From assembly GCA_965153455.1 (NCBI GenBank), contig OZ234493.1, forward strand, positions 13,382,213 to 13,446,212: a stretch of 64,000 nt of DNA. The letters run 5' to 3'. The notes beneath the pieces are model-generated. The model did not search any database, was not told the DNA's origin, and saw only the letters and a list, made by a program, of their open reading frames with translations. This DNA is from Sphagnum compactum. Its lineage: Eukaryota. The position numbers and the translations under genes were made by a program. Shown piece after piece: positions 3,592 to 58,291 of the stretch. The stretch's first letter is position 1. Each line of letters opens with the position of its first letter.

Positions 3592-4500
<909 letters not shown>

Positions 4501-30910: not shown

Positions 30911-33900
30911 GAAGGTTATTGAAACAAAAAAAGGCTAACATTTCTATATGCCAATATCTCCATGCATTTAAATTCCCATTAATGTTTTTGAATAAATAAA
31001 CACTTGTAAGATTTATAAACGCTTGAGTTCAACTATAGTACAACATATGCAAAAACATTTAAAACATGTAAGTAATTTCCCCTATGAAAAAAAATTAAAA
31101 AAATCACCACTATCGCACTTTAACATCCATAATTGGGTGAATGAATTTGTTCCACATGAATGAATTTCACCCAAATGAATGGAACTGATGATATTTTTTA
31201 CAAATCTTTTAATGTTATGTCATTGGTTAGAATCTTAAAAAGGATTCAACATTAATTGATGACATGTTTTTAGAACCTATCTACATAGTAAAAAATAATA
31301 ATTCAAATTTGTTATAAAATTACAATCAAAATTCAAATGTGTTGAATTTTTTTTCCAATTTTTTAAAATTTGACTATTTGCTTCAAGAAAAATGGGAATG
31401 TTGGGACTTTTTTATTTCATATTTTGGCAAAATTTTCCATACAAAAAATCGTCAAGTGTGACTTAATGGATATGCATTAATGTTTCTTCAATATCGACCA
31501 ACACAACCATGCGATGTTTGTTATGCACTTCCCAAATCTCACCATGGGTTGAAGAAATCAATGAATTTTTTCAACTACCAAGCTTCATCTTCACTTTTGG
31601 AACCAAATCACAAGTGTCAACAAGTTTTTCCATCCAAAAGTTGTTTAATTAGATTGTTAACAATTGGATGATTTAAACTTTTGTATATCTTTAAAAATTA
31701 AAATTATATAAGTCTAACAAAACATTGATGATGCCTTCATTTTCCACTTAGAAAGTTAAGGGTTGGGAATTATGCAATTTGATACATCATGAAGTCTCTT
31801 ACATATTAAGTCTTTCAAAACTTTCATAATGTCACTAAAGGTGAAACCATGCTTGCACATGGATCATCAACAATAGAAATTTCAAATAGGAAATCACTTT
31901 TGACAAATAGTATGAGAAATGATAAGGACTTGGTGACCAAATAGGGTTTAGAATGGTTTATTGATAAACAATTTATTGGTAAGATGCAAGTAGAATTTGA
32001 AATAGAATCAATCTTAGTTGTTTAATGGTTGTTGCTAGGTTTTTTCATAAAGTTGTTGATTCTTTAATGTTGAGGCTATATAGTCTTGGTCATGCAAGTG
32101 AAGACTTGACATCCCATACTTATTATTTGTTGAGGTGGGATGTAACTAGAATTTTCCAACTATGGTGATTCATGGAGCCAACTAACTTGCTAAATTTTGC
32201 AAATGATATTATTTAATGAATTCTTTGTTGTTTTGCTTACAAGTGAGCTTTATTTTTTAGCTTTTTTGTTGCATGCAAATGAATTTCAAATTTTTATTTT
32301 TCTTTGATTATTATACTCAACCTGCATTCATAGTTTTTAGCAAAGCCAAATGGAGTTACACTCACACTCTCTACAATAATGCTTACCCAAATTCATAAGA
32401 ATATTTAATAGATACTCTTGTGAAACCATAAAGAAATTGGCTTACAATTACATTGTACCATTTTAAAATGTCTAAGTATAAATAATGAAATTAGGCCAGA
32501 AGTAATTAATTACAATTCAAAATAGAAGGATAAATTACAACCTAAAAATTTATGTTAAATAATTAAGAAATTTCTAATTTAATAATTTATTTTTGTAAAA
32601 AGTCAAAGTGGGGTGTCTCACAATATTTCAAAATTCACCCTACCTACTCGATGAAATAATTATTGTTGATTTACAACCATAATGTAAGCAAATCTAGAGG
32701 TTATATATTGCAAGGCATTTAGAAAAGACAACTCCATTCTACTCAAAGGATTTCAATCATCCATCACACCTAGCTAAAATGTGACCATTTTAGTTGAAGG
32801 CTTGTGTTGGTTTAGGAAGCTCATGTAGCCATGTTAGGAATCTTATCTTTTGCAAAACAAAGAAGTTGCATTATATTTATTCATAATAGATGATTTTCTC
32901 TCAATACCACAAATGTCAATTAAGTAAATTATTGGAAATTATTGGAAATAGAAAAGATGTGCAATGTGCTTCTCTATTCAGTGATATTTGTAAAATTGGT
33001 TTGCATAAATTCAACAACCTAGGAAATTGAACCTTTGCATGGATGTGAAAGGCAAATAACAAAATATGTTTGCTTTGACAATATAAGAATATATTCATGT
33101 ATATTGTATAGGAATATTAGTAATCTACTAATTTATTATGCATCCCTAACACTCCTACATGTTTACTCGTGTTCCATATGTCCAAGTCATAATAATGTTA
33201 TGTTTTTATAAGGTTTGACTAAGTAGCATTTTTAGATTAGTTACAAAGAACTATAACTTTATCCTAGTGACAAGGAATTCATTTAGGGAAGATTTTTTCA
33301 GAATTCATCATGTGGTCATCCTCACGGAGAATTCCAAATGGATTCATCTTGAACAATTCCAAATTTCATCCAAAATTGAAGACAATTCAGGTAGTTTCTT
33401 TGTATTATACATTAAGAACAAACCTTTGTTCACATTGCACATGCTTTCTCTCCTTCTTGTTTTTTTTTTTTTTTTTTTTTTTGTGTCAATCATTATTTCG
33501 AACAAAAACTTTGTTATCCAAGGGACAAAACTCATTTGGTGTCCAAAGGACAAAGTGTGGGGTTCAACTATCTAAAACAAGGAATTATGCAAACATATGA
33601 AAAACAAAGGGCATTGAAATTGAGGTTCCCGACGTAGGATTTTGTTTTGTTTTATGCATGACGTTTTGGAGCACAATGTCTAGCATATTTGAACTTGCTA
33701 ACCAATGATGATGCGCCTCCCCATGTTTGTTCCTTTCTAAACATGAACTTTTGATGAAAATGAAATTTGCATAAGGGATTGAATCTTTATATCCTTCCCA
33801 CATTGAGTTACCATTCAACTACTTATACGTTTCAGATGAGCTAAAGGGTCAACATTTTTCTCTACATGGATAATCTTGTCCTTGGAACGAAGAGAAGTAG

Positions 33901-35507
33901 TGTGTCAAACAACTTGTGAACGCATATTGGCTTAGAGCTAAAACCAATTGACTTGGTGTGCAAAGGGTTCATTGTAAGCCAATTGCGACTCATCAAATGA
34001 TTGTTCATGTCCTAGGTTAATCAAATTTTTTTGACCTAAAGCCCTTCAAAACAATAAGAGGTCTCTCTTGAACAATGAAAATATCCCATGACACATAATT
34101 TGTGCAATTTGGTACCTTATTATCAAAGAGGGAAAGTGAATTAATGTGTCAAAAGTTCCTTGTCTATTGTTTAGAGTGACCATAATCTTGCAATTTTTGT
34201 CACTCCAAATCTTCCATATTTAATATTGAAGGTTCTCGACCTATTAGGGGAATCAAGGAATGTCATTAAAAAAAAAATTTAAATGGCAATATTGTGACAA
34301 TATGTGTAGTAGCCACATCTTGTGTAGTAGCTAAAATCATGATGTGGCTACTACAAGAGATGTCTGTCAATGGCATATAATTGGAAATCGCAGGTACCCA
34401 TCAAAACATTTATGCATGTAAATCAAAGACGTCCTGTTGATTTTTACAATGGGCACCTTCATTGCAATAGCAGAAAGAATTTGCAGAATCTTTGCTTTAG
34501 GTCGGCCTCACATCCCACGTTTCCCTTCTGTAGGAAACAAGATGATGTTCAATCTTGCAGCAGCTGGGTGTTGGAACTATGGGCAAAAGCAGCCAGACAT
34601 TATTTATGGTCAGGCACTTCCCAAAGCATCAACGATGTAAGATGTGAATGCAACAAAATCCTTTGCACATTCTGCTTTGAAAATGTCACGAAGAACTCTT
34701 TCTCCCCCCCCCCACCCTCTCTCTGTGCAATATGTGTATTCCAAGCTTCCATGTCCATCAATCATGGTGTAAGTGCGGTCATTAGGGCAGAGACCCTTGT
34801 GACATTCATGGAGCACAAATATGAAGTCCCAGCTTTTGCAGTAAACTTGTGTTTCCATAATGCAATTTCTGAAGGGTCACAAGGGTATGTGGATTTTGCC
34901 AGAGATGGGATTCCACAAACACAAATGCAGCTTCCATGGCAATCAACAAGCTTTGCAAAACACAATTTCCTTTTACTGCAAAGTTCTTTCCTTCATTTGA
35001 CAGGAGACAACAAGCTGCATGTGTACGATTCTCCTTTTGTGGAGACAACAACAGAAATTTGTCTCTGAGAAATCCTCCGCAGTTAGTGCTCATGCAAGAA
35101 AAGACCCAACAAAAATTGCAAAAAAGGACAGGACAATTGTTTCCTTGATCTTACAAAACTGATGATACAAATTGCGGTGCAAAGTTTGTTGCTGTTTTGC
35201 AAAAAAAACCTTTACACAAGAACCACTTCTAAATTCAAGCCTGAAATTGGTTTTGAGCTTTGGATCAGCTGCACTCATCATCTTGTTCATCAGAGTGTGG
35301 ATAGCAGCAGTTTACATTCTTACTATTTGCTGAAGCTCGGGATCAATTTCTTGGCATGCCTTTCTACATGTTATGAGTTTTTCTACTTCTTGTTGCAGGT
35401 GGTGCTAGCAGACATCGTAGTGTTGTTGCTGGCAGTGCGTCAGAGCATTTTTGCTCCTGATTTGCAAACTTTTATACATATTGTACATGATTTCTCCTTC
35501 AGCTTCT

Positions 35508-37730
35508 CTAGTCTACAAGCTGAAGCTCCTGGTACATGGGACCAGCAATGGCTTGCTGCATCACAAGCATAGGGTTGATCTCTCCATCGTTCTGCAAGAA
35601 AACCTTGAGCAAGTTTTTACTGAATCCAGACACCATAGCCACGCCCTTCTGGTTCTTCACAACAGGTGTACTCCTGGAGTCTCGCAAGTTCCAGAAAACA
35701 ATTTGGGGTGGATGATCTCCATAGCCAGCTTTCTTGAACTTGTTGCAGATGACCATGTAGTCTGTGGCTTCCCAATCGCTGCCAGCCTCTCCCTGGGTGG
35801 CTTGGTCAAATTCCATATCGCTGAAGACGAACAGACGCTTGATCATCTTCTCGGGAGGGAGAGAGTGCAGCACCGCCTTACTGAGGATGATGTCGAAGAC
35901 GGCTTGGAAATCGGTGTTCATACCCCAATCCATAGACTTTGTGAAGCGATGTCTCTCGGCGATCGTTTCTCCCTTCACCAAGTGCAGTTGCGGCTGCGAG
36001 CTGAAAGTCATGATGTGATTCTTCCATGGCTGCTCGCACAAATCGGATACCAACAAACCCAATGCAATGCAAACCTCCATCGGAACCCCAGCCATGCTCC
36101 CGGAGACGTCGCAAACTGCCATACAATTGCTCAATGAGCCTTGCTTCTTCATGTCCTCCACCAGCCGTTTCCACTGCAGCTCCGACACCTTCCCTGCTTC
36201 ACCTTGGTCCTCTTTCTCCACTGCCTCCTGCACGATCTGGTGCGGAAGCAAAGCCCCGGCCGCTAGCTTCGCTCTGCCTGCTGTGACATCCTCTAGGAAC
36301 TTCTTGAACCTCTCTGGGTCTTTCTTCTCGAAGATCTCTTTGTAGTTCTTCATGGCAACGGATGCTACTCTGTTGTAAGGAAGCTCTTCCCATCTCTTCG
36401 CGCTCATGTACACTTCAGGAAGCTCGAGACATCTTCGCAAAGGGACAAGCACCTCCTTCCGTAGCCTGTCGCGCACACGGTAGGCGTAGTGTGCATCCTC
36501 GAGATCTGCGTACTCTGGGAACGAGGATTTGAGGAATAGGCGACGGGCGATGCTCTCGCACATGAGTGTGCGCTTGTCGTAGGATTGATCCAACGAAGGC
36601 GCCCACTTCGCAGCGAGACTCAGATCGAATTGCCTCTTCTCCGCGAGCGCTAGCACATCTTTCGCCAGCTGGTCCGCGAAGATCTGTGCAGCTGCCGAGT
36701 GCAAGAGCTTGAATCTCGAGTCCTGGGAGTATTTCTCGACGGCTCGCTCCGCAAGCTCGGCTGTCACGATCCGCCGCTTCTTTCTAGCTTGCTCTTTCAT
36801 GGCCGCATCCTTGACCTGCTGGGCGGCAATTCTCTCGGCTTGCGGGAGAAGAGTTCCATCCGCCTTCGCAGCTCTAGCTGCAGCACCCTTCCTACTCTTA
36901 TACGCTTCCCTCGGAGCTCCTTTCCCACAAGTGAGTGCATAGGTTCTCATGATCTGCTTGTAAGCTCTGATGTTTCCCGCGGCCTTCTCCTTAGCTTTGA
37001 GCTTGAACTTCCCAAAGCGTACAACTTCATTATGCTCCTCTTTTTTAAGGAGCCGGAGCTGGGTTTCTTGGGGACCTTCGACAATCCTGAGCACCAGCTC
37101 CAGCAGATCCTTGTAGTATCCAAAAGCCGGGATGCAACCCAAGTTCGCAAGTAGAGTTGAGGGATGATGGTGGTATAGCCACAAAGCCGCCGTGTAGAAG
37201 CTCTCCTTGTCTGATTTCCCCGTCCCTCGTACCGCACGCAGCTGGAAGACGAGCTTCAGAGCCGTGCTAGCGTCCTCCTTCCATGCAAGCTCCAGAAGCT
37301 CCGTCACTCTCTGCGAGCTTGTACTTGGAACCACCTGGAAGAAGAAATCAAGGCATGCGTTTCCGGATTCTAGAAAAGTTGTCGACAGATTTTCCGTCAA
37401 TCCCAGTTTGGGTAGTTGTCCGGAATTATTTTCGCGCGTGCTCTCGCCCTTGAGCATCTCCAAAAATGGCTCATGGGGCAGTTCCTCATCATCATCATCA
37501 TCATCATCATCCTGTCTCACCTCGTTAGAGTTCAAGTTTTCTTTTTCATGAGATTCCTGATCCTTCTTCGGATTCTCCCGCACAGTTTCTGATTCAAGAG
37601 ACTTTTGTAGTGCGAGCGACTGCAACAGCTGCTGACGATCTAGCTCCCCATGCAGGTCAGCTGGTCCAGCGCCCACATGAACTGCAGCAACTGGAGGACC
37701 TACTAGTGGCAAAGCTTCAACTGTTGCCAT
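35508..37730 (-). CDS. DUF2828-family helical plus vWA protein (At5g13210 / mimivirus L728-like, TROVE-like), 740 aa, coding region uninterrupted
   Basis: Long GC-rich ORF, probable start ATG at 37730 (MATVEALPL). Motifs: GLTENLSTTFLESGNACLDFFF, ALKLVFQLRAVRGTGKSDKE, FGYYKDL, SLAAKWAPS, LPYNRVASVAM, AGALLPH, MIDAS-like VCDVSGSM, TDFQAVFD, FSDMEFD, IVFWNLR and VSGFSKNL. Confidence 0.9.
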   Translation of the reverse strand: MATVEALPLVGPPVAAVHVGAGPADLHGELDRQQLLQSLALQKSLESETVRENPKKDQESHEKENLNSNEVRQDDDDDDDDEELPHEPFLEMLKGESTRENNSGQLPKLGLTENLSTTFLESGNACLDFFFQVVPSTSSQRVTELLELAWKEDASTALKLVFQLRAVRGTGKSDKESFYTAALWLYHHHPSTLLANLGCIPAFGYYKDLLELVLRIVEGPQETQLRLLKKEEHNEVVRFGKFKLKAKEKAAGNIRAYKQIMRTYALTCGKGAPREAYKSRKGAAARAAKADGTLLPQAERIAAQQVKDAAMKEQARKKRRIVTAELAERAVEKYSQDSRFKLLHSAAAQIFADQLAKDVLALAEKRQFDLSLAAKWAPSLDQSYDKRTLMCESIARRLFLKSSFPEYADLEDAHYAYRVRDRLRKEVLVPLRRCLELPEVYMSAKRWEELPYNRVASVAMKNYKEIFEKKDPERFKKFLEDVTAGRAKLAAGALLPHQIVQEAVEKEDQGEAGKVSELQWKRLVEDMKKQGSLSNCMAVCDVSGSMAGVPMEVCIALGLLVSDLCEQPWKNHIMTFSSQPQLHLVKGETIAERHRFTKSMDWGMNTDFQAVFDIILSKAVLHSLPPEKMIKRLFVFSDMEFDQATQGEAGSDWEATDYMVICNKFKKAGYGDHPPQIVFWNLRDSRSTPVVKNQKGVAMVSGFSKNLLKVFLQNDGEINPMLVMQQAIAGPMYQELQLVD

Positions 37731-38233
37731 GGTCGAAGAAGCTCTTGAGACAGAATGCAGAATCTCCGGAAATCCTGTCGCAACAAACAAAAATCCCTCT
37801 ACGTTTCCCTTTTCAATTCTCGACTACCTAGCTAGCTAATGGAAATCCTCTCACACAACAAAAATTCCCTAGGTTCCCCTTTTGAATTCTGTACTCCCTA
37901 GCAAATGGGGACCACTCCAGAATTGCCGGTAAAAGCTGAGACGCTGCAAAAACCAGCTGAAAAAACGACTATGGAGGAGGAGACAAACAAATTTACAAAT
38001 TACAAATGCGAGACGAATCTCCAAGCTTGAACGATGCAGGAAGTGCGCATATGCCGAAAAACTGGCCAACGGGGAAGAATCAGGAAAAAACACTCAAGAG
38101 GAAGAAGAGAGTGCGCGATGGAATTGAGAGAGACACCGCAGAGTGAGAAGCAGGGAAGAAGAACACGGCTATTTATGAAATGAGCAAGCAGCACTGAAAC
38201 GCACGCGCAGTGTGAGTGAGTGAGTGAGTGAGA

Positions 38234-42614: not shown

Positions 42615-43409
42615 TCCTTTGTTTCCAAAGCCTTTGGCTGCATGAGGAAAAAACTGGAGAGTGTTTTGTCTTTATTGATCTTGTCAGCAAGAATACGACA
42701 CATTTCTAGCCTCTTGTCAATTGTGTTTCTAAACAATTGCTTCTTCATTTCAATGTGCATTACCAATGTAACAAGAATTTCTAAGGTAGCTATTGCAGAA
42801 CCCCCAAGTATCAAGCACAAAGTGCTGACATCCAAGATAACTAAACCATATCAAATCTCCCACGTAAAAAAAATTTGATATTGATAAAACCCACAAAACC
42901 AGCAATTAGATCCTGCTGAAAATATGCTTTGAGTGGAAATGCACTGAACTGAGCTTGTTGGAGGGGGGTGGGGGGGATTGAGTGACCTTGAGCCATGGAT
43001 ATGTGTCTGTGTTGGACTCTTACGAACATCCCACTCTCCTAAGCTTGGCATTGGCGAGATGTTCACAGAGGTACAGGATTCAGGCAGTTTGTAGTAGGTG
43101 AGTGACAACTGCAACAGGGGAACAGAAAAGAAGAAGAAGGGAGAAGGTGCTACATACACAAGAGTGCAGACAATGATGGCAATAAGGGCAATTTGGATAG
43201 GTGCACAGTTGTGGAAGAGATCTTAAAAAAAAAGGCTGCTGCAACAGACCTAACCCTTCCTTTGTGTGGTTTCCTGAGACCATGGAAGTCAATTGCAGGA
43301 GTAATCCTTGGTACAAGTTGTGCTGATCCTGTGTTTAGAGCAGAGCTCCACCCATACTCGGCATTTGGCCCTGCAACTGTATTTCTCTCATCAAAGAGTA
43401 CTTATTTAC

Positions 43410-43658
43410 AGATTCCAACCCCCACCCATAAACATGAACCTGGGACAGTAAAAGGTCAGAACCTACTAATAACAAATCACCTGGACCAAATCAATATATG
43501 TGACCAATCAAGAGCAGGTGTTAGACTGTGCTGGGGCATTTGCTAGCCTCAGCATATTGAACAGAAATGCTGAGTCACAGCCATTTTTCTGGGCCTGTCA
43601 GGCAAATTTTTTCTGATCTTCATCCAAAACATGTTGTGCAGTGTGTTGGTGGAGATGC
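43410..43658 (+). mobile_element. Degenerate copy of the 39114 MITE family
   Basis: CAACCCCCACCCATA...ACTAATAACAAATCACCTGGACCAA...GCTGAG..CCATTTT...GGTGGAGATGCT matches the internal and right-end sequence of 39114-39484. Confidence 0.7.
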
Positions 43659-44099
43659 TGTTGGAGAGCCCAGGATCTCCTCTTTGTTGTGTTTGTAGAG
43701 ATCATCATAGAGGCTGGCTATATACTTTGTTCTTCATCAGAAATGTGCAATGCAGAAGATTGGGCGATTGGTATGGGGGTGCATTTAGTTCAGTTAGAGA
43801 GTTTGTTTGTTTAGTTTTTTTCCCCCCCACACTTTCCTTTGCACTTGATTCACTCTGGTACATCTTTCAGATGCTATCCAAAGCTCAGTTGGATTCGCAG
43901 ACCACTGTTGCAGATCCAATCAGCTAGGTATTTTGATCTGATCTATTTTGATTGCACAAGGACTATTCTCAATCTGGAATAATGTGTCTACTTCCTTGCC
44001 CATGATTTGGTGCATGAATGCATGATCACCCAATTTGTCATCAAGATGAGTGCACTGTCTCTCAGTGTTTTGACAAGGAATTTTCTGTTTGGACGCAGA

Positions 44100-47000
44100 T
44101 AGAGGAGCATCAGAGAATGTCATCTTCTGCTTCATGAATCAACAAGATGAACATTCCAAACCTGCATGTCCACGAGTGAATGATAAGGGACAAAAAAATT
44201 GGGTGTCTGTCAAGGTCACTCCCAGAAACACAAGTGCCATGCAGACATCTCCACCTTTGTCTGTGAGGCCATTGATAACAGCTTGGCCTGCACCCTCCAC
44301 ACCAGAGTCAGGAGGAACCAAGCTCATTCCCCTGTAAAAATCTTTCTCTCCTCCCTCTTCTGCCTATGCTGCATCCATTGCTCCAGCCTTGAATCCATTT
44401 GTTGCACCCACTGCCCCCCCCCCCCCAAAACTGCAGCAAACAAGGAAGGAGCCACTACTAGCTTGGATTCTGGCAATGATGGAAGGACACAAGTGGCCCA
44501 AGCACAAGCCCCTGACCATGATACTGCTGGTGATGCGGACAGCATTCAGGCTATTGAGCTGCCACCCTTGGCAGGACGACCTAGTGTCATGAATGTCATT
44601 GTAGTTGCAGCTGAATGTGCACCCTGGTCAAAAACTGGTACCATGAAAAACCTATGTTAGTATTCTGATTTCTGCCTTACACAGCTCCTCTGTATCTGTG
44701 TACATTTTTTGCACTATGTCAACTATAGGTTAGAAAGAAGCAATTTCCTCTGACAGTGTCACCGTGATGAGTGAAGGTAACTGATTGTTTCTGTTTACTT
44801 CTGCAGGAGGTCTTGGTGATGTTGTGGGATCTCTACCTAAAGCATTGTCATGCTGTAGTCACAATATCACAGTAACTGCTATCTTGTGCCGGCACCCTAG
44901 ACAGAAAGGTTTAGTACAGATTGAATGCCATGAATATATAGCAAAAAAGAACACTAGGAGTCAGAATTGTTCCAGTGAAGCTGAAAATCCCATTACTTGG
45001 TCCAGTAGAGATAACCAGAATTGTGTGCTACATATTGTCTGAAGAGTTGAGAGTACAGCCCATATCCTTTAAGCAAAATACACATATATGCTGAGCAATT
45101 TCTGGGACTTCATATTGAGTCAAATGATCCTGCAGTGCACTATCTGAACCCTAAAGAGGAATGGAAAGATTGTTGGAACAATTGTACTGCTTCATGAAAA
45201 TCTGGATATCTTCCTTGCAAGTTTCACTGTGTTCAGGGTTTTGTTTTGGGAGCAGGTGGTGGCTCCTCAGTACACCAGTTATGCTGATGCTTGGGAAACT
45301 GGCATTTGGAAGATCTACAATGTTTCAGGACAGGTATCAGAATCTCACCCATATCTGCATCTCATGGTCATGCAGATGCTTCTACTCCAATGTGCTTCTA
45401 AGTGAAGTACTGATATAGGGTCTCACTTTCTCAGGAGGGTTACAGCTCCACCATTGCTTCACATTTACTGGTCATCTCTGTGTGTAAGGTCTGCTTTCTC
45501 ATTGTATTACTTTGTTGGTTGGTCTTTCCACAATATCTAGTCATTGCCTCACACTCTGCCTCTCGTCTTCCTTTAGTTTTCTGTTCTCAAGTGGGTAGAA
45601 CTCTGATTAACTGTGGCTGTACATTGGTGGCAGGATATGGAGGTTGGCTACTTTCACACCTTCAAAGATGGGGTGGACTTTGTGTTTATTAATTCATCAA
45701 TCTTCCATGCTGTTGCTTCTAACATTTATGGTGGTTCTCACGAGGTACCCACTGAGCCCCTTCTATTGACCATGCTTTACATGAAATTGTGATCAGCACA
45801 AGTGCACTTCATGTAGTTAGTGGCAACTTGTTTTGCATACTGTCTATCTGGCAACAATCCTGGATTCCAGATAAAACTCTGTTGAGCTTTGTTGAATGCT
45901 ATAATGAAACAGAAGTTACTGACCATATACTACTACAAGGGATAATATTTTTCTCCTCAAGTGGGAAGGTCATGGTCAAGATGCATGGAGGAGGTGTTAA
46001 AACGTATGATATTGCTCTGCAAAGCTGCCATGGAGGTGAGACCACTCATCTGGCAACTGATACCTGGGTGCGGGTTTAGGGTTTAGTGGTTAGGGGTTAG
46101 TGCAACTCCTTGTGGCTGGACTTGAATGAAAACCTGGACCTTACTGATGCTGTGTTAACTACAGGTGCCTTGGCACGTACCATGCAGGGGTGTCTGTTAT
46201 GGAGATAGCAATTTGGTCTTCATAGCCAGTGATTGGCACATGGCCTTGCTACCAGTATATTTGCAGGTGTACTATCGAGACAATGGCTTGATGGAATTTT
46301 CTCATTCCATCCTTGTTATCCACAATATGGCTCCTCAGGTTTGCTCTTGTAAATCCCATCCTACCCATCAGGACTGAACTAGTGACAAATGTTGAACCCC
46401 TATTGAGTTCTTCACATGTCCAGTTCATCTACAGGGCTCTTGAAACATCAAAGCAGAAAGAATCACAGAACAGAACCAAACCACAGAGAGTTTGGATTTT
46501 GCTGGAGGAAGTGGATTGCATTGTTTGTTTCTTAGCATCACTATGAAGAAGTTGTGACCCAGAGAGAGCATATACAGTGATGCAGAAGTCAATCTACAAA
46601 TGTGTTGGTGACATGCATTTGGACCTGAACTTCTTGCCAAGAAAATGCATATGCTCTGGCTCATTACATAACCACATTTCGAGATAGAGATGGCATTTGC
46701 AGAGTCATAGACCAGTGTCGGATTATGCAAAACTTGGGTTACCAGGCCATTATGCAGATAAATTCCATTTATTTGATCCGGTTGGAGAACACATGAATAT
46801 CTTCATGGCAATTTTAATCACAACTATTGCATTGTGACTGTTAGCCATGGGTATGCCAGTGAATGTCAAACACGAGAGGGAGGGTGGGGATTGGATGCTG
46901 TTGTTCAGGATCACAACTGGAAGCTGAGGGGGGTTGTGAATGGAATTGATGACACTGAGTGGAATCCTGAGTTGGATCCTTGCCTTGAGAGTGATGGCTA

Positions 47001-47656
47001 CCACAACTTATTCTCTTGACACCTTACCTCGTGGCAAACCTGCAAGCAAGGCTGTGCTTCAGAGGGAGCTGGGGTTGCCTGTGTGCAATGAGGTGCCATT
47101 GATTGGGTTCATTCAGCATCTTGATTATCAGAAGGGCGTGGATTGGTTAGCAGGGGCAGTGCCATGGATGATGGGCCAAGATTTGCAGCTGGTGATGCTG
47201 GGTACAGGCTGCAAAGACCTGGAAGATATGTTGCATCACTTTGAAGGTTGCTACTGTGATAAAGTGTGTGGATGGGTGGGGCTTTCCTTTAAGACAGCTC
47301 ACCATATTACTGCAGGTGCAGATATCCTATTAATGCCATCTTGTTTTGAGCCATGTGGTCTCAATCAGCTGTATGGAATGCGCTATGGGACTGTTCCAGT
47401 TGTACATTCAGTAGGTGGCTTGCAAGATACAGTGCAGCCTCTTGACCCATTCACAGATTCTGGAACGGTCTGGACTTTTGACAGGGCAGAGGTTGGTGGT
47501 TTTACTGATGCGCTTGGAAATGCAACGTGGACATACTGTGACTTCAAGAATAGTTGTATTGGCATACAGCATCACGGAACGTCACAGGATCTCAGCTGGG
47601 ACCATGCAGCTCAGCAGTATGAGGAAGTGCTATTGGCTGCCAAGTACTCCCAGTAA
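44100..47656 (+). pseudogene. SS2: Soluble starch synthase II (GT5/GlgA family) pseudogene with introns retained; 5' end uncertain
   Basis: Exons read PPLAG..VMNVIVVAAECAPWSKTG | GGLGDVVGSLPKAL | VVAPQY..SGQ | DMEVGYFH..DGVDFVFI | EVLKRMILLCKAA | VPWHVPC..DWH.ALLPVYL..VIHN | final exon 46703-47656 ([47 protein letters not shown]). Frameshifts at ~46825 and ~47005, and many conserved Arg residues are lost. Confidence 0.92.
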
Positions 47657-48229
47657 TGCATACTATCTCATCTAGTTTGGCCTACTCCAACATGAGGTGA
47701 TACCAAACTATCATCAGGAGGTTGATGAAGGTGTGTGACCTGAGCTGCTACGGAATTCTGAAACCTTAAAAACAGAAGTTGTACAGCCCAAAATCTGGAG
47801 AATAGAATATTAGGATTAAATTGGGCAATCGGTAGTGGATTCTCACAACTGAGCAATTTTGCCTATCATATTTCAACTACCTGCACTGAAACTGTGTCTG
47901 CCTGAAATACAATTGTGGAGAGTGCCAGAAATTTACGTGATTGAAGGGCAACTGCTTGGTCTAAAGGGTTTCTGGGCTATTTCACCCATGTCAAAGCAAC
48001 GTGACACTTATCACTTGTTGACACAGTAGGTTGGTCGTGGTGGTTTTCAGGGTGTGAAGAGAAACAAGCAGAATTGTATTTCTATGAGATCTCCTCAAAT
48101 ACATAGTAAGTACTTGGAGGCCCCTGTGGTTTGCAGATTTATAAAACTTTGGGAAACTTTGGATGGGTTCAAGCTCAAACTGAAGGAGCAGTTTTTCCCC
48201 ATAAGAGAACATGATATAGTTCTCAGATT

Positions 48230-48540
48230 CAAAGTGCTCTTTCTCTTGCTCTCACTGATCAGGTTAGGTTAGCTTCACCCATTCTTTTTCACTCTGCTTC
48301 CTAGCTTGTTTGCTAAGGTGGATCTAGGGGTTGCAATTCAACAACAGAGGATCTGCAAGTGTATTTATCAGGTCTTTCAAGGGGCTTGAGTGTCTGGAGG
48401 GATGTGAACTATTTCAAAAGCTGAAGAAACTGGATGGTTACAGGGATGACAAATGGGCAAAAGTGTCCATAGGAGCCGCAAGTGGTGGAATGGTGATACC
48501 GAAAGCGAGTGTTTTGAGTTGTTGCAGGGTTTGGAATTGA
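48230..48540 (+). pseudogene. Possible leucine-rich-repeat gene remnant
   Basis: FTLLPSLFAKVDLGGCNS (cf. LPxLxxLDLxGC) and LECLEGCELFQKLKKL in adjacent frames; short and frameshifted. Confidence 0.3.
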
Positions 48541-49125: not shown

Positions 49126-50070
49126 CAGTGTGGGGTGGGCATTTTGCAACGGGTATTAACCGGGTATCAGACCGGGTATATGCATATATACGCCTGTGTT
49201 GGGTCTTACTTTTTCAAAAAAAAACACAGACCCTCTCCCCCCTCCTCTCTCCTGCCCCGCATTTTCTGAAAGTTAACACCACTGTCCCCACCTCATAATC
49301 AATGATGTTAAAATTTCAAGCATCCATAACCAGACCCTAACCGAGGAGAATAACTACAAGGTAAGGCGTCTCTCAAAAAACCTGGATCAATAACCGTATC
49401 ATACCCGGATTGTGCTACCTTCAGATTGAAAGGCAAAAAAAAATAAAATCTTCAGGTTCTCTTAGTAGCTGCCACAAATAGTCAATATGCGTCCTCAGTT
49501 GCGATCGGTGCTTGTACCATGGGTTTAGGGTTTAGGGTTTAGGGTTTCAATTAACAAATTAGGGTTTAGATTTAGTAACACATGTGCTCAAGCTTGCAAA
49601 CCAATAGTGTTGTTTTAGATTGTCAAGAGCTTTTGCCTCATAAGCTTAAAAGATTTAAGACTAAGAGCTTGCCTCATAAGCTTAAAAGATCTAAGACTAG
49701 TCGTTTGTCAAAAGCCTTAAAGACTTGGCAAGGACCTGGCTTTGTAGGACATTGTTGAAGACCCGACATATGTTTCTAAGGGGGTCTTCCAAAAAAACCT
49801 GGCTAAAGAAAGAGTCTCTTTTAACCCATTTGGGTTTCTGTTAAAGAACCAGACCTTATATATCTGGTTAATCACATACTCTAACCCTCGCCCTCACCTC
49901 ATAACCACCCACCCCTCTTTGGGTTTCTAACACCTGGACCTGACCAGCTCTTTAATAAATCTCCTAAAAATAAAAGAACGAGACTTGAGCGGTTCTTTAA
50001 AAAATAAATTATTCTCAAATACCCAGACCTGACTATTATTATTTTTTAAACAAATACCCGCCCCACACCC
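49126..50070. mobile_element. Candidate non-autonomous hAT-like element, ~945 bp
   Basis: Imperfect TIRs CAGTGTGGGGTGGGCATTT / AAATACCCGCCCCACACCC. No clean 8-bp TSD. Contains (TTTAGGG)3 at ~49523 and a ~37-bp tandem duplication at ~49633-49699. Confidence 0.55.
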
Positions 50071-50089
50071 GTAAAGACAACCAAGTTTA

Positions 50090-51680
50090 TTCTTGCTTCA
50101 TAACAAGGTCGTCCCAATACCAAGAGCAAGTTGGTATGACAACTTGTGCTAAGTTGGGTTTCGATTTATGCATATGTGGTTGAAGATTGATAGCCATTTT
50201 TTTATAAAAAATTTGATGTTATCCTTGAAATGGGTTTGTGAATAGGGTCATTTCAAATTTTCTAAAGCTTATTTTGGTGGATGTTGTGATGTTCTTTGGT
50301 GATTTGACTTAAGAAACAATGACATCAAAGTTGGTATCTTTTGGGGCTTAAGAGGGTTGGTTGTGTTTCAAGGTGTTAGAACAAAGGTCATTATGGTGCA
50401 ATGGAAATACTAGAATTCATCCTTTACGATTGATGTACATTGCATGAACCACTACACCAATTTGGAAGGGAAAATTCTATTTAGGTCAGGCATCGTTGGG
50501 AAGATTGAAGATGTACTACAAAGCTAGTATGCTTACTTCTCTCTTAACCCAAATAGAACCAATTTGTCAAACTAGTTGACATCACAAAAATACGGGAATA
50601 AATTCTTAAGAACATTTAAACAATAAATTCTAATCCTAATCATGAAAAGTGTTGAATGAATACAAAGTTTTAGTTTTGATAATGGATCAAAGATTTTGCT
50701 ACAATCATACAAGTTGTTTACAACCTTCAATTTATTTGACTTGGAGTTGATGTTGGGATTGTCTTTGGTGACACCAATGCTTGTAAAGTTAAATTAGTTT
50801 ATTAAGTTCTTCCAATATCAAAAGTGTTTCCTTTGTGATTTTTGTTTAATTTATTATAAAGTAGTTGTATAAATCTCGTATATCCTCTTGATACATTGAC
50901 CCATGTATGATATGTTCAATGGGCATCAAGAACTTGTTGGTGGCACAAATGTGGCGGCACATAAGTATGAACAATTGTTGGCAAATCTCTATTATGATGC
51001 ACAATCATTGTCCTTAGATAAAACAAATATGTGTTTGTGCCCCAAGTTTATTTCCAACCAATTATCAATGATATTGCAAGGCAAAGTTTTGACGGAATAG
51101 TCAAGCTTATGATGAGCTTGACAAATTGATTCCTTGCACAAGATATGGTGGATGCTTTAAGATATGTGATCCACTTGTATTATTGACAAAAATTCTTGTG
51201 TGAGGAGATATTTCTTGTTAATTTGACTATGTTGAAAGGGTTTTATTGTTAACCTAAGAAACTTGGATAAACCCCAACATGGATCCCGATTCAATACTTG
51301 ATTTGCGGATTTTGTACTTGCAATATTTTTTCTTCAAGATCACAATGAAGTTCAATTCCCCAATGGCCTTGGAATTAGCCCATGGATTTAAATCCACAAT
51401 GTAAAGAAGCTTTACTTCACTACACTATTATGTGCATGTCTTAGTAAATTCATGAAATTGGTTCATGCTATGGTTCACATTATGAAATTCTTGGAAGAGA
51501 AAAGGATTTTATCAACCTTGACATTCATGGAACCAAGGCTTTCGATCATATGGTTTGAGCATTTGGATTTGGTAGTTTGTATGCATGCACAACCAATTTC
51601 TATTGTTGATAATTTTCCTTACCATGATGCCATCATAACTTGGACCAAAGACAAAATGTGAAAGGGTATTTTAGGTTGAA
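50090..51680 (+). mobile_element. Degenerate hAT transposase (ZNF862/ZMYM-like type) remnant
   Basis: DVHCMNHYTNL (cf. HCxAHRxNL), Q.LYAYFS, EEKRILSTLTFM (cf. EDERxFSTLxFMK), EHLDLVVCM...FPYHDAI..W; heavily disrupted. Confidence 0.75.
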
Positions 51681-54489
51681 CATGAGTACAATTTTGGATG
51701 TAACATTGTTATGTAAATAAGAAATTAATATCATGAAATATCATGGCTACCTTTGTGGTCCAATCCATGTCAACTTTGCATACTTGCAAACCCTAATTTT
51801 CATTGCATTGTAAATGTTGGGTGTGCTCGGCTCATCTTCTAGCATGTACATGTTTTGTTGTTACATCAATGGTGTTTGATTTTTCATTTATTTGTGTAGT
51901 GAAGTTGGATTTAACAATGTATTACAACTTACAACATTAAAGTTCATATTTTGCATTAAATATGACTAGCTTTCTATGTCGAGGGTGTGTGGGTGAGGTA
52001 TGAAGTGACAAGTGCATGTTGAATCCATAAGAAGGTTTTCAACCTCAAGCAATTCTTAGTTTCCATGATGTCAACAAGTTGTTTAATTTTTGAGGAAATT
52101 TCATTGTTGGGTAGGTATTTGATTTTGTCAATAATACTTGGTTTTGGGTTTTTAATTATTTTAGAATTAAAGAAATTAATTTCAGTATTTTGAAAATAAA
52201 AATAAAAATCAAAGAACCACCGATACATAACCCTGATTCAAAAAAGATTCGAAAAAGTCAAATAACTACCCAAAAAATGCCTTGTGAATAAAAGAAACCA
52301 CTTATGGGCTCACACATATGTGATATCATTTATTTTCTTCTTTTGTGTGATTCAAAAAACCATTTGCATGCTTGAAAGTATGCAATATAATTTTTTCTTC
52401 TTCTTTTATGTGCGTCCAAAAAACTACTTGTGGGCTTGCAAATATGCAATCCTTTTAAATACTTAAAATATATTAGAATTTAAAATAAGTTTGACATTTT
52501 CAAACCTTTGTAATATCAAAATTTATGTCTTGAGACTTTTTTAATTTTGGAACTCGTAATATGTAATGTAATTTAAGTTTGCTAGTGACAAAAAGGTTCA
52601 TTTTTATTGGACTGGATTTTTTAATCATTTATATATTTAAAAACCCTCAAATAAAAAATTGGGTATTTTCAAAATTTTGAGTTGTTTTGCATATTGAAAC
52701 TAGAACCACCAGTTGTACAACTAAGACCCAAAACCAGTTCAATTTGAAATTAAGTTTCAAATTTGCAAGTTTTTGAGTTGTTTTGCATATTAAGACCAGA
52801 ATTGCCAAATTTAGGTTTTAATCCCTATATTGCCAAATTTAATTCTTCGTTCAACTAAGGTGTAGGGTCCTAAGTCTACCTAGGTCATTTTCATTTAATA
52901 AACTTATCTAGATTCTTTTTTTTTATTAATTGATGACGCTAAATTTTTTTAATACGATCAACATGATCGTACATACAAAAGAATGGGGGAAGATATGGGG
53001 TGTTCAATGAAAGGGGGTTCAAATGTTCAATGATGAGTGAATTAAATCATATTAAAATTGAGAGCTTAAGATCTTTTATCTTTGCAATTGGAATATGAAG
53101 AAATTTTGTAAAGCCCTAGTTGGCGCACCCATGAGGTTTTTTAATGACTAAAATCAGACTAAAAGTGATGAATATATGGGGTTGCTAGAACTAGCGAGGG
53201 TTTAGGGTTATGGGTTTGAAAACCCAGACCAGATGGACCATTGGGTAAAAATCAAGATCCTCGCATACCTCTCCAAGAGGCTTAATTTTTTAATATATAG
53301 ACTATAGCCTAAATATTCCTGTCAAAGGAAAAAGGTCATCAATGTACTTAATTTCACAACCGCCTTAAAAGGGGAAAAAATCAAATAAAAATCAATGTAC
53401 AATAGCCAATTTTGCAACCCCTAAACCCCCCTTACATTTTGCAACCCTAAACCCCAAAACCCCCTCAAATTTTGGAACCCTAAACCCCTTAAATCTCCAT
53501 ATGTTGTTACAATTTTGTTCCCTGTATAAATCACCTCTAAAAATGTCCAAGAGTGCTATTGTAGTCACCACATAAGCCAATTGCAAGAATCATGAAAACA
53601 AACACTGTTATAGGGGGTTTAGGGTTTATGGAGCTTTCAACTAGGAAGGGCTTGCTCTTTTACCAGTTCCAGCACCATGAAGCTAAAGAGGGGAAAATGC
53701 ATTAATGGGGCAGCATTTCAATGGCCCAGGGGCTCCCCAACTCTGGAGAAAGAACAAAAGAACAAAGAACCTCCTCTGGACTCTGGGGGAGCTTCAGTAT
53801 AGCAGGTTATATTATGAGAGGGAAGGGGGGGGGGGACTTTCAGGTTGTCATAATAAAGAGTTGATGCAGGTTTTGATTTAGGTTTTTGTGTTATGATTAG
53901 GGTTTGGATTGGATCCAAAGTAAGGGATTTTCCAAACCACAGTGGAGTGGGTTTTTTTTGTTGCTTTTGTTGTATGGAGTCTGTAATATGTATAGGTATT
54001 GTTATTAGGTACTTGTCCATGTGCAATCTTGTGTCATGGATTTTCTGTGCCTGAAGTAGATCAGTTTTTGATTATACAAATGTCAGTTTGTATGTATGTT
54101 AACTCTGATCCTAAGAGCTTGTGATGAGTGAGCTCCCCCCCCCTCCCACCCAGATCTACTACACAAATCAAAATCCATTTCTCAAGATAGAGAAAAACAC
54201 ACATGATCTGTCAAAGCTGCCATGACTGAAAAGCTTTCTGGTCACAGAGAAACCAAAGCCTAACTGCCTCTCTCTCATAGTCTCCTCTTGGGTTGGAACT
54301 AAGGTTGCTTAAGTCCTTACAAATCAAGGCAATTTGGATGTCGACAATGATATAATGGCAACTGTGATAACAATAACAAACCAAAATTTAGTGCAAGTTT
54401 TGACCATTGCACTTGAAGCTAAGGGCATGGGTACCTATTATGATCCATATTAATTAGTTGAGAAAACATATATATATATAGATATATGT

Positions 54490-54895: not shown

Positions 54896-57414
54896 CCTTC
54901 CAAGGATGTAGATGTAGATACCCATTTTCAAGAAGCTTTCAAGAAGCTCTTACAATAATAAGTGTCTCATTAATCTCATGTAAGCAGCCATCATTATGCA
55001 TTGTACATACCCTAATAAAACTCTGCACTCTTGGCTTTTGGGGGGGGGGGGGAGAGAATGGGTCATTGAGTGAGTGAGTGAGTAGTACAAACCTTGTCAT
55101 AAAATCAACTTAGAATCCTATTATTGTTTTACAACAACCTCTGTTTTTTTGCAACTGAACCAGGTGGGAAGAAAAACAGCACTTTTTTTCTTTTCAGTTT
55201 GATAACATCACCTGAAAATTTATTGCTACTACAAATACAATCCAGTTTGCATGCAAGGGATATTTAGGTATCTACTCTACCTTGCCCTCTCTAGTAGTAT
55301 AGACTATATCTACCTTTCATTCATGATCTCTATCTAATCCACCCAAGACTTATAACCAAGTCTTTAAGGACACCCACCACTTTCAGTGTGTTTTGTCTTA
55401 CATTGCAGATGGACCTTTTCTCATGAGTGCACAGCTCCCACACAAGACTCATAATTAACTGGACCATGGTTTGTATCAGCCATTTCTTTTGTGGTAATTT
55501 TTTTTGCAATTTTTGCAAAAAGCTTTTTGAGAAAAACCTTGGAAAACCCATGTTCTTTCCAGCAAAAAATGTCACCTTTTCTAAATTAAACATAGAGATA
55601 CATAGGGCATATTTATTAATTATATAGGGCATATTTAAGTGATTCACACACTAGCCAAATTTTCATTTAGAGCATGCACAATGGTGTGTTGTAAACAACT
55701 CTACATCGAACGCATAGAGCATATAGCAATACAAAGTGGGCCACAATGCACCCCACTTGCAGGCTGGCTTTGCAAATAAGTGATATAGCCCATCAAAATT
55801 TCCTCAAGCCCAAAAACACCATGGAAAGTAGAGGTCTAAGGGTTTTGCTTTGTACATTGCAATCAATCACAACAACAATGGCTTGGATTGAAGATGGGAG
55901 CAAGACAATGATTGAAGGTGGAGTGCAACAGTGATGACCTTGATTACAAGTTGGAATGCAACAACAATTGCTTTGATTGAAGGTTGAAGGGTTGCCATGG
56001 AGCATTGCAATGGGAAAAACTATGTGTGAAAGAGGAAAGGGAGTTTTGTTGAAGGTTTCTTGTAATATCTCAAGATCCAATCATAAGGAATGGCCAACAA
56101 TCACTTGCAAGCCCTATGCTCCAATCACAAGCCATAGGGTGAAGCAAATTGACCTAGATTTGAAGTTTAGAAATGAAATGGGGGATTATTACGCACAATG
56201 TAGCAAAACTTGTGGGTTGTTTAAACTTAGTGCTTGCATTGAATGAATTTGGAACTTTGCTTGAGGGTGCCTTATAATCAACCTTGTAGTTAAACAAGTT
56301 CAAGCACCCCAAAAGTGCATCATTATGTTTCATTGGTAGTTGATTATTTCTAAAAGACATGCCCAATTGGGTTGACACAAATAACAACACAAACAAAACA
56401 CCTTTGACGAATTGTTCAAGTTGATTGCTTATGTAATCGCATTACAAGGAACCAACAATGCACTTTTATGAGAATCTTAGAAAGCAATGGGTGAGCCAAC
56501 CATGTTGATGTGGTAGAACATGATTGGTTTTTCAAGGGAAATATCATTGATTCCATGATTTATAAGTCAATATAAATTTTTTTTCTAAAATTATAATCTT
56601 CAAAGTGTTTCAATATATTACTATGTTAGTGTGTATTAAATTTTTCTCAAAAATATGTCATTTTCAAAAAAAATAATGTCCTTAATTTTGAGAGTTTTTG
56701 AAATAATGAAAACACTAGTTACATTGTTTTAAATTTTTTTGGGGGTTTTATACAAAAACATTACATTGATTACAAAATAATCTAGATATGTAACCATAAT
56801 GTATTCTGAATGTTGTAGATATAAATAAGTCTAAAACTTTCAACAACTTAAGTTACCACCTAAAACTATGAAATTTTAATCAATGGTTATAGTTGTTTTA
56901 ATACATATTAGCATAATTGAACCCTTGCCGATAACATGGTGAAAGGGTTTGAGCTAGATTGTGAATCATGGAATCTTTGAATGATAGTGAAAATAAGCAC
57001 ACAAGTGGCCACAAGCTATCAAAGTGATGGAAAAAAAAATGTAAAAATTAAAGAATGTGCCCTACATTCACAAGCGAAGGCCACCATTAATATGGCAATG
57101 ACAATTTTGATGAAGTTTGAAAATTTTAAAAACTAATTGACATCGGCCTTTTTCACCATGTCCAATGGTAATTAATTTCAACATAAACACAAGAGTACCC
57201 TAATATCACATGGCTCTAATGTCACTTGGTTGAAAGTAATAGGTTCATCACCATGACAACCAACATTAATACGATAACCACACCCCAATCAAATCTAAAT
57301 TTGAACATAAATCCAACACCTCAAGACAACAATCTAATTCCATATGGGAAGGTGTAACAAGTCAAGTGTAAATTTTGTAATTTTATTGAAGGATGAAGGG
57401 TGAAAATCCTTTAA

Positions 57415-57654
57415 GGTGTACCACACAGGACAAAAAGGGCCTAGTCCTTTTTGTAGTTTTTTTTTACACTATATTTTGATCCCCATAAAAAATAATGAAT
57501 AAAAAATTTTCAAAATTTTCAAAAGGATTATATTTTAGACCATTACAATTCTTGATTTCATCATAATCATCCATAAATGTGTTTCTACATGGTAAAAAAA
57601 GGATTAGGTGAAAAAAACAAAAAAGGGTGATTTGTGACAAGATTTTGATACACC
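57415..57654. mobile_element. 240-bp MITE flanked by TTAA
   Basis: TTAA|GGTGTACCA ... TGATACACC|TTAA; the symmetry extends a further 2 bp into the flanks (CTTTAA / TTAAAG). Confidence 0.55.
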
Positions 57655-57767
57655 TTAAAGAATTTGGACCCTAAGATAAGCTTATGGTGCCAAATAGATT
57701 TTTTATGGAGACATGCCAACTAAACAACGTGGTAACTATTAAATCTATGGGCATGGCATTAGGGGAA

Positions 57768-58291
57768 TACTACATCACAAACTTGTAATTTCATGACTTA
57801 ATAATGGAAATTGTATAAAATTCATTCATTCATAATTCATATGTTTTACACATTAATATCGTGCATTGAAAACACATTTGCGCATGGATTTTTAATAAGA
57901 TGCAAAATACATGTGACATTTGTTCATTCATAAGTTTGTACTTCATTTGTCAACACATTCATCCATGTGTCAAACATATTTTCAACACATGATATTGGTG
58001 TGTAAAATGTTCATCCGTCAACACATTTATCCATGTGTCAAACATGTTTTCAACGCATGATATCGACATGTAAAATGTTCATTTTGTCAACACATTACCC
58101 ATGTGTCAAACATGTTTTCAATGCATGATATTGGTGTGTAAAATGTTTATCCATCAACACATTCATCTATGTGTCAAACATGTTTTCAACAAATGACATT
58201 GGTGTGTAAAATGGACAAATTACCTATGAATGAATGAACTTCGCACAATTTTCATTATTAATTCGTTGCATATTAAATTTGTGATGTACAT
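57768..58291. mobile_element. Small CACTA-like/foldback element with ~65-bp TIRs and internal 68-bp tandem repeats
   Basis: TACTACATCACAAA...AATTCATTCATTCATA is inverted as TATGAATGAATGAA...TTTGTGATGTA. Four copies of TCAACACATTCATCCATGTGTCAAACATGTTTTCAA..CATGATATTGGTGTGTAAAATG at ~57950, 58018, 58087 and 58154. Confidence 0.7.

Follow-up and report, generated by a model that had tools for sequence, protein, structure and literature searches.

An old starch synthase II pseudogene of a Sphagnum-like moss: probable loss of CGN arginine codons to ordinary CpG decay

Duplicated pseudogenes in CG-methylated genomes decay by the conversion of CpG to TpG and CpA, and their CGN arginine codons are hypermutable; vertebrates provide the classic cases. 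RIP of Neurospora and MIP of Ascobolus are fungal processes. MIP leaves no mutations, and RIP is, to our knowledge, known from fungi only. We know of no description of heavy germline gene-body CG methylation in model bryophytes. The logic of CpG decay has also been applied to human genes (excerpts of PMC3184784). In plants, TE-like methylation of genes, at CG as well as at CHG and CHH, is distinguished from gene body methylation that is confined to CG (part of PMC8995044), and the CMT and DNMT3 of mosses are treated in PMC6453930 (in the portion available). A literature search found no Sphagnum methylome among the matches listed, no paper on evolutionary loss of CWG in moss, and no occurrence of 'methylat' or 'CpG' in the Sphagnum genome paper.

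The locus described here lies in the window, the whole stretch of 64,000 nucleotides that was analysed. It is a dead, duplicated (non-processed) pseudogene of starch synthase II (SSII), copied at the DNA level. The complete intron-bearing pseudogene of this Sphagnum-like moss occupies positions 42995-47656 of the plus strand, and its start at about 42995, located by tblastn, replaces the start at 44580 given in the preliminary description, which had confined the gene to 44580-47656. Residues 1-735 of the intact protein P0002 of Sphagnum jensenii, which serves as the reference for residue numbers, are covered by tblastn on the locus, which retains the full set of eight exons with the introns between them, including the SSII-type N-terminal arm. 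The parts of the locus are as follows.

42995..43252, plus strand: exon 1 remnant, with ATG start and a stop at codon 16 that follows a short deletion
43222..43704, strand not given: repeated element in intron 1, overlapping the last part of the exon 1 match
44099..44637, plus strand: exon 2, the N-terminal arm up to KTG of the KTGGL motif, with several frameshifting insertions
44807..44871, plus strand: exon 3, SRRGH>SCCSH
45256..45333, plus strand: exon 4, APRY>APQY, Arg287 CGA/CGG>CAG
45634..45744, plus strand: exon 5, 87% identical by tblastn to residues 308-345 of P0002, GT donor and AG acceptor kept
45991..46035, plus strand: exon 6, with the sole surviving conserved CGN arginine codon (residue 350, CGT)
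46165..46338, plus strand: exon 7, part of Glyco_transf_5 (PF08323, 31.7 bits, 46159-46374), Arg407 CGT>CAT
46703..47656, plus strand: exon 8 and stop codon, end of the GT5 domain followed by the GT1 domain
47657..48539, plus strand: 3' flank that still aligns with those of the functional paralogs and with which the traceable part of the duplicated segment ends

The exon translations match the Glyco_transf_5 and Glycos_transf_1 domains (Pfam PF08323, PF00534 and PF13692), the latter two Pfam families at 47018-47653 in exon 8. All of the best 120 protein matches are SSII or GBSS2 proteins of land plants, and among them the closest, at 78-81%, are P0002 and P0003 of S. jensenii and the JGI 'starch synthase' P0001. 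The seven introns are at the same positions as in the paralogs, with an identity of about 75%, and the GT..AG borders are kept in all six that were checked. The earlier view of the locus as an intron-retaining, DNA-level duplicate of an SSII gene is thus borne out. Two functional paralogs, L001 and L005, were used for polarising the changes; both are public metagenome contigs of Sphagnum and come from outside the window's genome.

The SSII enzyme-coding frame is not intact at this locus. Exon 1 retains 35% identity to residues 1-91 of P0002 (tblastn) and contains an in-frame stop; in the alignment with L005 and L001 a 4-nt gap lies ahead of this TAA codon, and further insertions are present. 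The repeated element of intron 1, which has a DNA word depth of 334-1582 compared to 33.5 in single-copy bins, occurs in the alignment only in the window sequence; neither functional paralog has it. Exon 2, the boundaries of which were taken from sequence reading and the splice table, requires two frames and contains one stop in the tblastn match; compared with the paralogs it has gained insertions of 2, 2, 1 and 17 nt. In exon 8, one nucleotide is deleted after position 46825 and one is inserted near 47007; the stretch that they enclose is out of frame, with a stop about 10 nt past the deletion.

These lesions could be assembly errors in a working, expressed SSII gene. The intact borders of the six checked introns and an open stretch of 212 codons at the 3' end would agree with such a gene, as would the public annotation of S. 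jensenii, which calls a 458-residue protein, the 'unnamed protein product' P0003, at the orthologous locus. The deletion after 46825, however, is repeated together with the out-of-frame stretch in the independent metagenome contig L038 (95% nucleotide identity), which also has many of the same arginine losses, and the deletion, the translated out-of-frame stretch and many of the arginine losses recur within P0003. Of the RNA reads from the paralog, 38 of 38 have one more C following 46825, the base lost in the pseudogene. DNA contigs of related species, which cover the locus and differ from it by 1.5-3%, leave the frame broken; the stop in exon 1, the several frameshifts in exon 2 and the replacement of 18 arginines at invariant positions would also have to be accounted for. 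None of the 552 placed polyA reads, from about 12% of one run, is at least 99% identical to the locus. The lesions are therefore real, and a working gene with assembly errors is extremely improbable. RNA read depth drops to zero in intron-only bins. The metatranscriptome contigs that match the locus show no splicing and are 95-97% identical to it; they may represent DNA or another species. P0003 corresponds to this same pseudogene in a second genome, where it is filed as a protein, and should serve as a caution to annotators.

The eight arginine-bearing motifs listed in the preliminary description as changed are all present in the translations. They contain nine arginine positions (residues 276, 277, 558, 589, 608, 620, 633, 660 and 698 of P0002), each of which is encoded by CGN in L001 and L005 and by TGN or CAN in the window. 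Two of the motif changes need correction. The arginines of the motif given as ARRGH>SCCSH have indeed been lost, although the functional Sphagnum motif is SRRGH and not ARRGH. The change of DWHT to DWHM is present, but its codons (ACA>ATG) do not fit a simple CpG event. The codon test was made on the 24 arginine codons whose type is shared by the two paralogs, 19 of them CGN and five AGR. The CpG has been lost from 18 of the 19 CGN codons (10 to CAN, seven to TGN, one to AAT) and none of the five AGR codons has been lost (Fisher p=1.4e-4). For comparison, the pseudogene keeps 441 of 517 paralog-conserved residues other than arginine (85%), versus 1 of 19 CGN arginines. The changes affect both strands (10 CA, seven TG), in agreement with their earlier interpretation as CpG transitions. 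Exon 8 accounts for 12 losses of the CGN>TGN/CAN type. In exon 3, Arg276 has changed from CGC/CGG to TGC, Arg277 from CGT to TGT and Arg280 from CGT to AAT. Among the positions listed, RNA of the same organism confirms the paralog letter at three CpG sites: the paralog reads show C at 44851 and 44854 (17 of 17 reads) and G at 45269 in exon 4 (18 of 18).

Substitutions were tabulated by context, as had been proposed earlier, with the metagenome copies in the place of the paralogs. The table contains the expected enrichment at CG and lacks the one at CHG and CHH. On the pseudogene branch, CG sites underwent 19 transitions out of 40, compared to 95 out of 1078 for C in other contexts (odds ratio 9.4, p=7e-10), bearing in mind that the three lineages are nearly equidistant and were polarised without an intron outgroup, so that some 'pseudogene-branch' changes could belong to another branch. 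CpG transitions constitute just 19 of the 370 substitutions on the branch, and the decay cannot be called 'wholesale'. In the comparison with RNA reads, the pseudogene has T or A where the paralog has C or G at 108 places, with the reverse at 90; this weak asymmetry agrees with a minor contribution of CpG decay to the total change.

Could a general GC-to-AT bias, or a shift of codon usage after relaxation, have produced the same result independently of methylation and with no deamination of 5-methylcytosine? The window as a whole is rich in AT (GC 0.37), the CpG reading is drawn from sequence, and on all three branches C>T at non-CG sites mildly exceeds A/T transitions (odds ratio 1.33 for the pseudogene, 1.19 and 1.27 for the functional branches). 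Nevertheless, CG dinucleotides are specifically affected, and on both strands. Within 44580-47656 the CpG o/e is 0.14 (20 CpG in 3077 nt) and the products of deamination are in excess, with an o/e of 1.47 for TpG and 1.60 for CpA. Furthermore, CpG is kept in some neighbours, such as the DUF2828 ORF at 35508-37823 (o/e 0.76), and such a mosaic points to regional methylation rather than to a uniform bias. A methylation-independent cause is very unlikely, and 5-methylcytosine would presumably be the agent of the CpG decay.

The preliminary description went further and proposed that the duplicate was methylated as if it were a transposable element, with hints of CHG and CHH besides CG, and inactivated by directional mutation of the RIP/MIP type; in its full form, this proposal has the duplicate sensed as a repeat. 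In its favour, the loss of CpG is nearly complete, and a regime of this kind exists in this sort of genome: CWG (CAG/CTG) in the AT-rich intergenic DNA of the window has a Markov o/e of 0.15, the lowest among the 32 trinucleotide classes. Three younger Sphagnum SSII pseudogenes, L013, L017 and L018, carry a strong CHG signature (pooled transitions 56/261 at CHG versus 51/836 at CHH, p=1.4e-11). Intron transitions at CHH are also somewhat more frequent in the pseudogene (43/279) than on the functional branches (29/261 in B, 16/252 in A). The other evidence is against the proposal. On the pseudogene branch, CHG transitions (24/265) are as frequent as those at CHH (71/813, p=0.90), the non-CG odds ratio quoted above resembles those of the functional branches, and CWG is not depleted, its Markov o/e being 1.08 in the pseudogene, 1.12-1.16 in functional gene bodies, and 0.94 and 0.82 in the pseudogene flanks. 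There is no RIP-like preference for CpA: the four CAN classes (11/133, 13/138, 9/95 and 13/118, or about 9%) change at much the same rate as the CTN classes (12/128, 3/41, 7/64 and 7/85). The introns of the pseudogene have accumulated 197 substitutions, compared to 161 and 161 in the functional copies, and its branch dN/dS of 0.39-0.47 argues that the copy was not struck at birth. The introns of the functional copies are equally CpG-free (o/e 0.05 in A and 0.09 in B, versus 0.07 in the pseudogene), which makes a new methylation state unnecessary for explaining the decay. Inactivation by deamination is likewise not supported. In short, the sequence bears no sign of transposon-like treatment of the locus, and an attack of this type is very unlikely.

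The live genes themselves suggest the preferred explanation. The functional paralogs have 19 CpGs in common and all of these are within the tested CGN arginine codons. Over about 1950 nt of exon, the pseudogene has 19 CpGs and the live genes have 26-34; so few separate live from dead copies because the live genes are nearly CpG-free outside their arginine codons. Throughout the SSII family, expressed copies included, CpG appears to change to TpG or CpA far more quickly than other sites, which would be the signature of germline CG methylation of gene bodies. In live genes, conserved CpGs would persist only where they form the first two bases of a CGN arginine codon, because the protein is under selection. 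With selection gone, these CpGs would decay like all the others, turning Arg into Cys, His and Gln, while AGR codons and CWG would persist. Loss of selection on fast-mutating CpGs would suffice, with no RIP/MIP-like or transposon-like attack. The locus is thus very probably an old SSII paralog, first constrained and then dead, whose CGN arginine codons were lost to ordinary decay of methylated CpG after selection had ended.

The age of the copy is in keeping with such a history. The dS values are 0.40 between the pseudogene and functional copy B, 0.39 between the pseudogene and A, and 0.38 between A and B, so the copy seems to be about as old as the split of the paralogs (dS about 0.4). That all three values are near 0.4 is a poor fit to two successive duplications. 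In the exon 8 tree, from which L038 was left out as too short, the pseudogene, B and the A clade come out as a three-way split with no preferred order. The younger whole-genome duplication of Sphagnum has a Ks peak of 0.406 (part of PMC9946827). The 3' flank is 68-76% identical (blastn) to sequence downstream of L005, L007, L001 and L013; tblastx and blastn of 3-kb flanks detected no shared flank beyond about 0.9 kb on the 3' side and none upstream. Most simply, the copy would be the remnant of a duplication, either segmental or of the whole genome. The dN/dS on its branch, 0.39-0.47 compared to 0.08-0.26 on the functional branches, suggests that it was not dead on arrival, although a long period of relaxed selection could also be reflected in this value. 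The pseudogene was probably once functional: as an old paralog that arose at the DNA level alongside the two functional SSII genes, it would have experienced purifying selection for a time before function was lost.

P0003 resembles the window copy in its Arg>Cys/His/Gln changes, in its translated out-of-frame stretch and in a 76-95% amino acid identity per exon. It differs in having His at residue 277 (Cys in the window) and Gln at residue 398 (Arg in the window), an indication of independent decay. Residues 398 and 477 are CGA in the window versus CAA and TGA in L038. To judge from these differences among the three copies, CpG decay is apparently still going on. Since the split from L038, 19 events have occurred in the window copy and 25 in L038 (1055 nt), too small a number for a test of non-CG contexts. 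The younger SSII pseudogenes, with a pairwise dN/dS of 0.87 against the parent, look dead from birth.

The moss genome may contain two regimes of decay, one restricted to CG, in gene bodies (the live SSII genes and the old pseudogene), and the other acting on CG and CWG, in AT-rich intergenic DNA and in the younger SSII pseudogenes. The fate of a dead copy would then be set by its chromatin domain and not by duplication as such, and germline CG methylation of gene bodies would be heavy in peat mosses. This idea is tentative, and we give it slightly less than an even chance. The SSII family represents a small natural series, made up of two genes that are alive, a single old pseudogene in genic surroundings and several that are young. 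Within it, decay at CG only can be separated from decay at CG and CWG by sequence alone, and this comparison is worth more than the locus itself. If the pattern is true genome-wide, many Sphagnum gene bodies would have strong germline CG methylation, and past chromatin states could be read from k-mer depletion.

Among the known systems, the locus resembles the CpG-decayed pseudogenes of vertebrates. The introns are kept, disabling lesions are present, CpG transitions affect both strands, arginine is replaced by Cys, His or Gln here and by a stop in a related copy, and the CpGs of live genes occur only where they are selected. The differences are that the host is a moss and that live and dead copies are distinguished by a handful of CpGs. 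With RIP and MIP the locus shares its duplicated DNA and its C>T/G>A changes, but a CpA preference and an excess of neutral divergence are lacking, selection acted after duplication, and the functional partners are intact. The C>T signature at CHG (CWG) expected of TE-like methylated plant genes and pseudogenes is found in L013, L017 and L018, along with CWG depletion in intergenic DNA, whereas the window pseudogene has decayed at CG only, without loss of CWG. The locus is a new example of an ordinary phenomenon, and its sequence reads as the textbook loss of CGN arginine codons by CpG hypermutation.

The starch synthase II (SSII) copy is a real, old and unprocessed pseudogene that bears a clean footprint of CpG decay. 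In the translation of 44400-47700, exons of SSII type are visible, and so are all motifs quoted in the preliminary description. Eight exons were mapped by tblastn with P0002, an intact 736-aa Sphagnum jensenii protein, and they extend from 42995 to 47656, so that the gene is wider than first described. The introns are retained, and GT..AG is intact in all six that were checked. The exon translations match Glyco_transf_5 and Glycos_transf_1/Glyco_trans_1_4 (Pfam). The open 3' stretch 47018-47653, used as a protein query, matches land-plant SSII/GBSS2, the top three being P0001, a JGI 'starch synthase' (81%), P0002 (79%) and P0003, a 458-aa S. jensenii 'unnamed protein product' (78%).

Features of the window
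3592-4062: ubiquitin-S27a
7622-8500: direct repeats, five overlapping copies, ~140-227-nt spacing, 62-80% alike
about 18-20 kb: ferric-reductase-like gene
35508-37823, - strand: DUF2828 + DUF7788 ORF, intact, 771 codons, single exon
43222-43704: ~480-nt repeat in intron 1 of the pseudogene (word depth and alignment)
1-2000, 8001-10000, 30001-34000, 50001-52000, 56001-64000: AT-rich intergenic bins low in CAG/CTG (CWG)

These genes are of ordinary kinds. Domains of retroelements were absent from the ORFs scanned, which were 10 of the 22 in the window with at least 130 aa. The intron 1 repeat is missing from both functional paralogs. Its DNA word depth is 334-1582 compared to 33.5 in single-copy bins (~10-50x), and its inverted repeats are weak (18 nt, 78% complementary). 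RNA reads of other copies of this repeat map to both strands.

Exon 1 carries a short deletion followed by a stop at codon 16, several insertions shift the frame of exon 2, and in exon 8 a single nucleotide is deleted after 46825 and another is inserted near 47007. The 46825 deletion is shared by L038, a metagenome locus 95% identical in DNA. P0003 turned out to be a gene model on the same pseudogene in S. jensenii: the arginine replacements are common to both, and, relative to window 44239-47653, the model skips the broken parts and includes a translated out-of-frame stretch. The orthologous pseudogene has been filed in public annotation as a 458-aa protein. Between 36 and 40% of the locus 31-mers are present in DNA runs of three other organisms. 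In one polyA RNA run with the same organism label, 552 reads matched at ≥80% likeness (classes 0/16/128/408), none of them ≥99% alike to the pseudogene. These reads fall on exons only, 19 of them span the GT..AG joint 46033>46163, and the C absent after 46825 is present in 38 of 38; they therefore derive from functional paralogs. Metatranscriptome contigs also overlie the locus, but with 95-97% likeness and no splicing they may be DNA or belong to another species.

A P0002 scan of public metagenome contigs gave 44 loci, which were grouped by tblastn.

SSII loci in Sphagnum metagenome contigs
L001-L004, L015: SSII-A, intact, 99% to P0002
L005-L007: SSII-B, intact, ~90% to P0002
L021: SSII-B group, partly spliced transcript
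L013/L014; L017-L019/L022; L029/L030: three groups of A-derived pseudogenes, at least three further loci
L038: ortholog of the window copy

The MAFFT alignment, which spans exon 2 to the 3' flank and excludes exon 1 and intron 1, gave identities of 0.757 (window-B), 0.751 (window-A) and 0.789 (A-B).

The loss of CGN arginine codons is confirmed, far beyond chance. At 19 positions both A (L001) and B (L005) have CGN arginine; in the window one of them is still Arg, and the others read as Cys (7), His (6), Gln (4) and Asn (1), the dinucleotides being 10 CA, 7 TG, 1 AA and 1 CG. In contrast, arginine is kept at 5 of 5 positions encoded by AGR in both paralogs (Fisher p=1.4e-4). Conserved non-arginine residues are kept at 441 of 517 positions. 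The paralog C or G at 44851, 44854 and 45269 is borne out by same-organism RNA reads. The CpGs at 44854, 46276 and 46873 decayed independently following the lineage split. Residue 277 is TGT (Cys) in the window and His in P0003; at residues 398 and 477 the window retains CGA, and L038 has CAA and TGA.

Branch changes were counted where A and B agree and the window differs. A column was used if none of the three sequences had a gap in it or in the two columns on either side; sites differing between A and B were dropped. The window branch totals 370 substitutions.

Transitions/sites by context: window branch; younger A-derived pseudogenes (pooled unique events)
CG: 19/40 (47.5%); 21/49
CHG: 24/265 (9.1%); 56/261
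CHH: 71/813 (8.7%); 51/836
A/T: 97/1427 (6.8%); 42/1425

CG sites exceed other C/G sites on the window branch (odds ratio 9.4, p=7e-10). CpG transitions make up 5% of the change, yet they explain 18 of the 94 replacements of conserved residues. The preliminary description proposed TE-like methylation with RIP/MIP-like and non-CG decay. Its suggested comparison by context, made here with the metagenome paralogs, bore out the CG excess and gave no CHG/CHH enrichment. CHG and CHH do not differ on the window branch (p=0.90), the context counts reveal no CpA preference of C>T, and the odds ratio of non-CG C>T versus A/T transitions is 1.33 (p=0.07), compared to 1.19 on the B and 1.27 on the A branch. 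The one point in favor of non-CG decay is an intron CHH excess (43/279 in the window, 29/261 in B, 16/252 in A; intron substitutions total 197, 161 and 161). Overall, RIP/MIP-like and non-CG decay is not supported at this locus.

TE-like decay does fit other family copies. In the younger A-derived pseudogenes CHG exceeds CHH (p=1.4e-11), the excess being concentrated in CAG/CTG; their functional sister branch has 1/147 CHG transitions in exons and 0/83 in introns. The CWG C>T signature is strong in L013/L014 and L017-L019/L022. Pairwise dN/dS of L013 against its parent is 0.87, and the L018 copy begins at residue 352, next to a flank poor in CWG (Markov o/e 0.13). Across the window, CWG o/e is 0.06-0.23 in many AT-rich 2-kb bins and 1.0-1.8 in genic bins. 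The low bins hold 48 CAG/CTG in 18 kb (Markov-1 o/e 0.15), the lowest of 32 trinucleotide classes (next CCG/CGG, 0.55); because they were selected by low CWG, only this specificity is informative. Such stripping of intergenic DNA looks like long-term CHG-methylation decay. The Markov o/e is 1.08 in the SSII pseudogene and 0.94 and 0.82 in its 3-kb flanks.

No special process is needed to explain the CpG decay of the pseudogene, because live genes are under the same mutation pressure. CpG o/e in introns is as low in A (0.05) and B (0.09) as in the pseudogene (0.07), with exon values of 0.31, 0.24 and 0.17. All 19 CpGs conserved between the live genes lie in these CGN arginine codons, and B itself has lost several CGN arginines, at residues 440, 462 and 646, and at 547 in L005 alone. 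Selection alone preserves the arginine CpGs of the live genes. The near-CpG-free introns of these expressed, intact genes (L001:1597-5788, L005:1458-5845) suggest heavy germline CG methylation of their bodies; in the 1.6 kb upstream of SSII-A, CpG o/e is 0.62. It is 0.76 in the DUF2828 ORF, far above the SSII genes, so that CpG depletion is mosaic across the window's genes.

The window copy, A and B form a three-way split without resolved order in the exon 8 tree, and dS is 0.38-0.40 in all three pairs, close to the Ks peak of 0.406 that PMC9946827 gives for the younger Sphagnum whole-genome duplication. On the pseudogene branch dN/dS is 0.39-0.47, compared to 0.08-0.18 for B and 0.16-0.26 for A, indicating that the copy was under constraint during part of its life. 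The phenomenon itself is known; the host is new.
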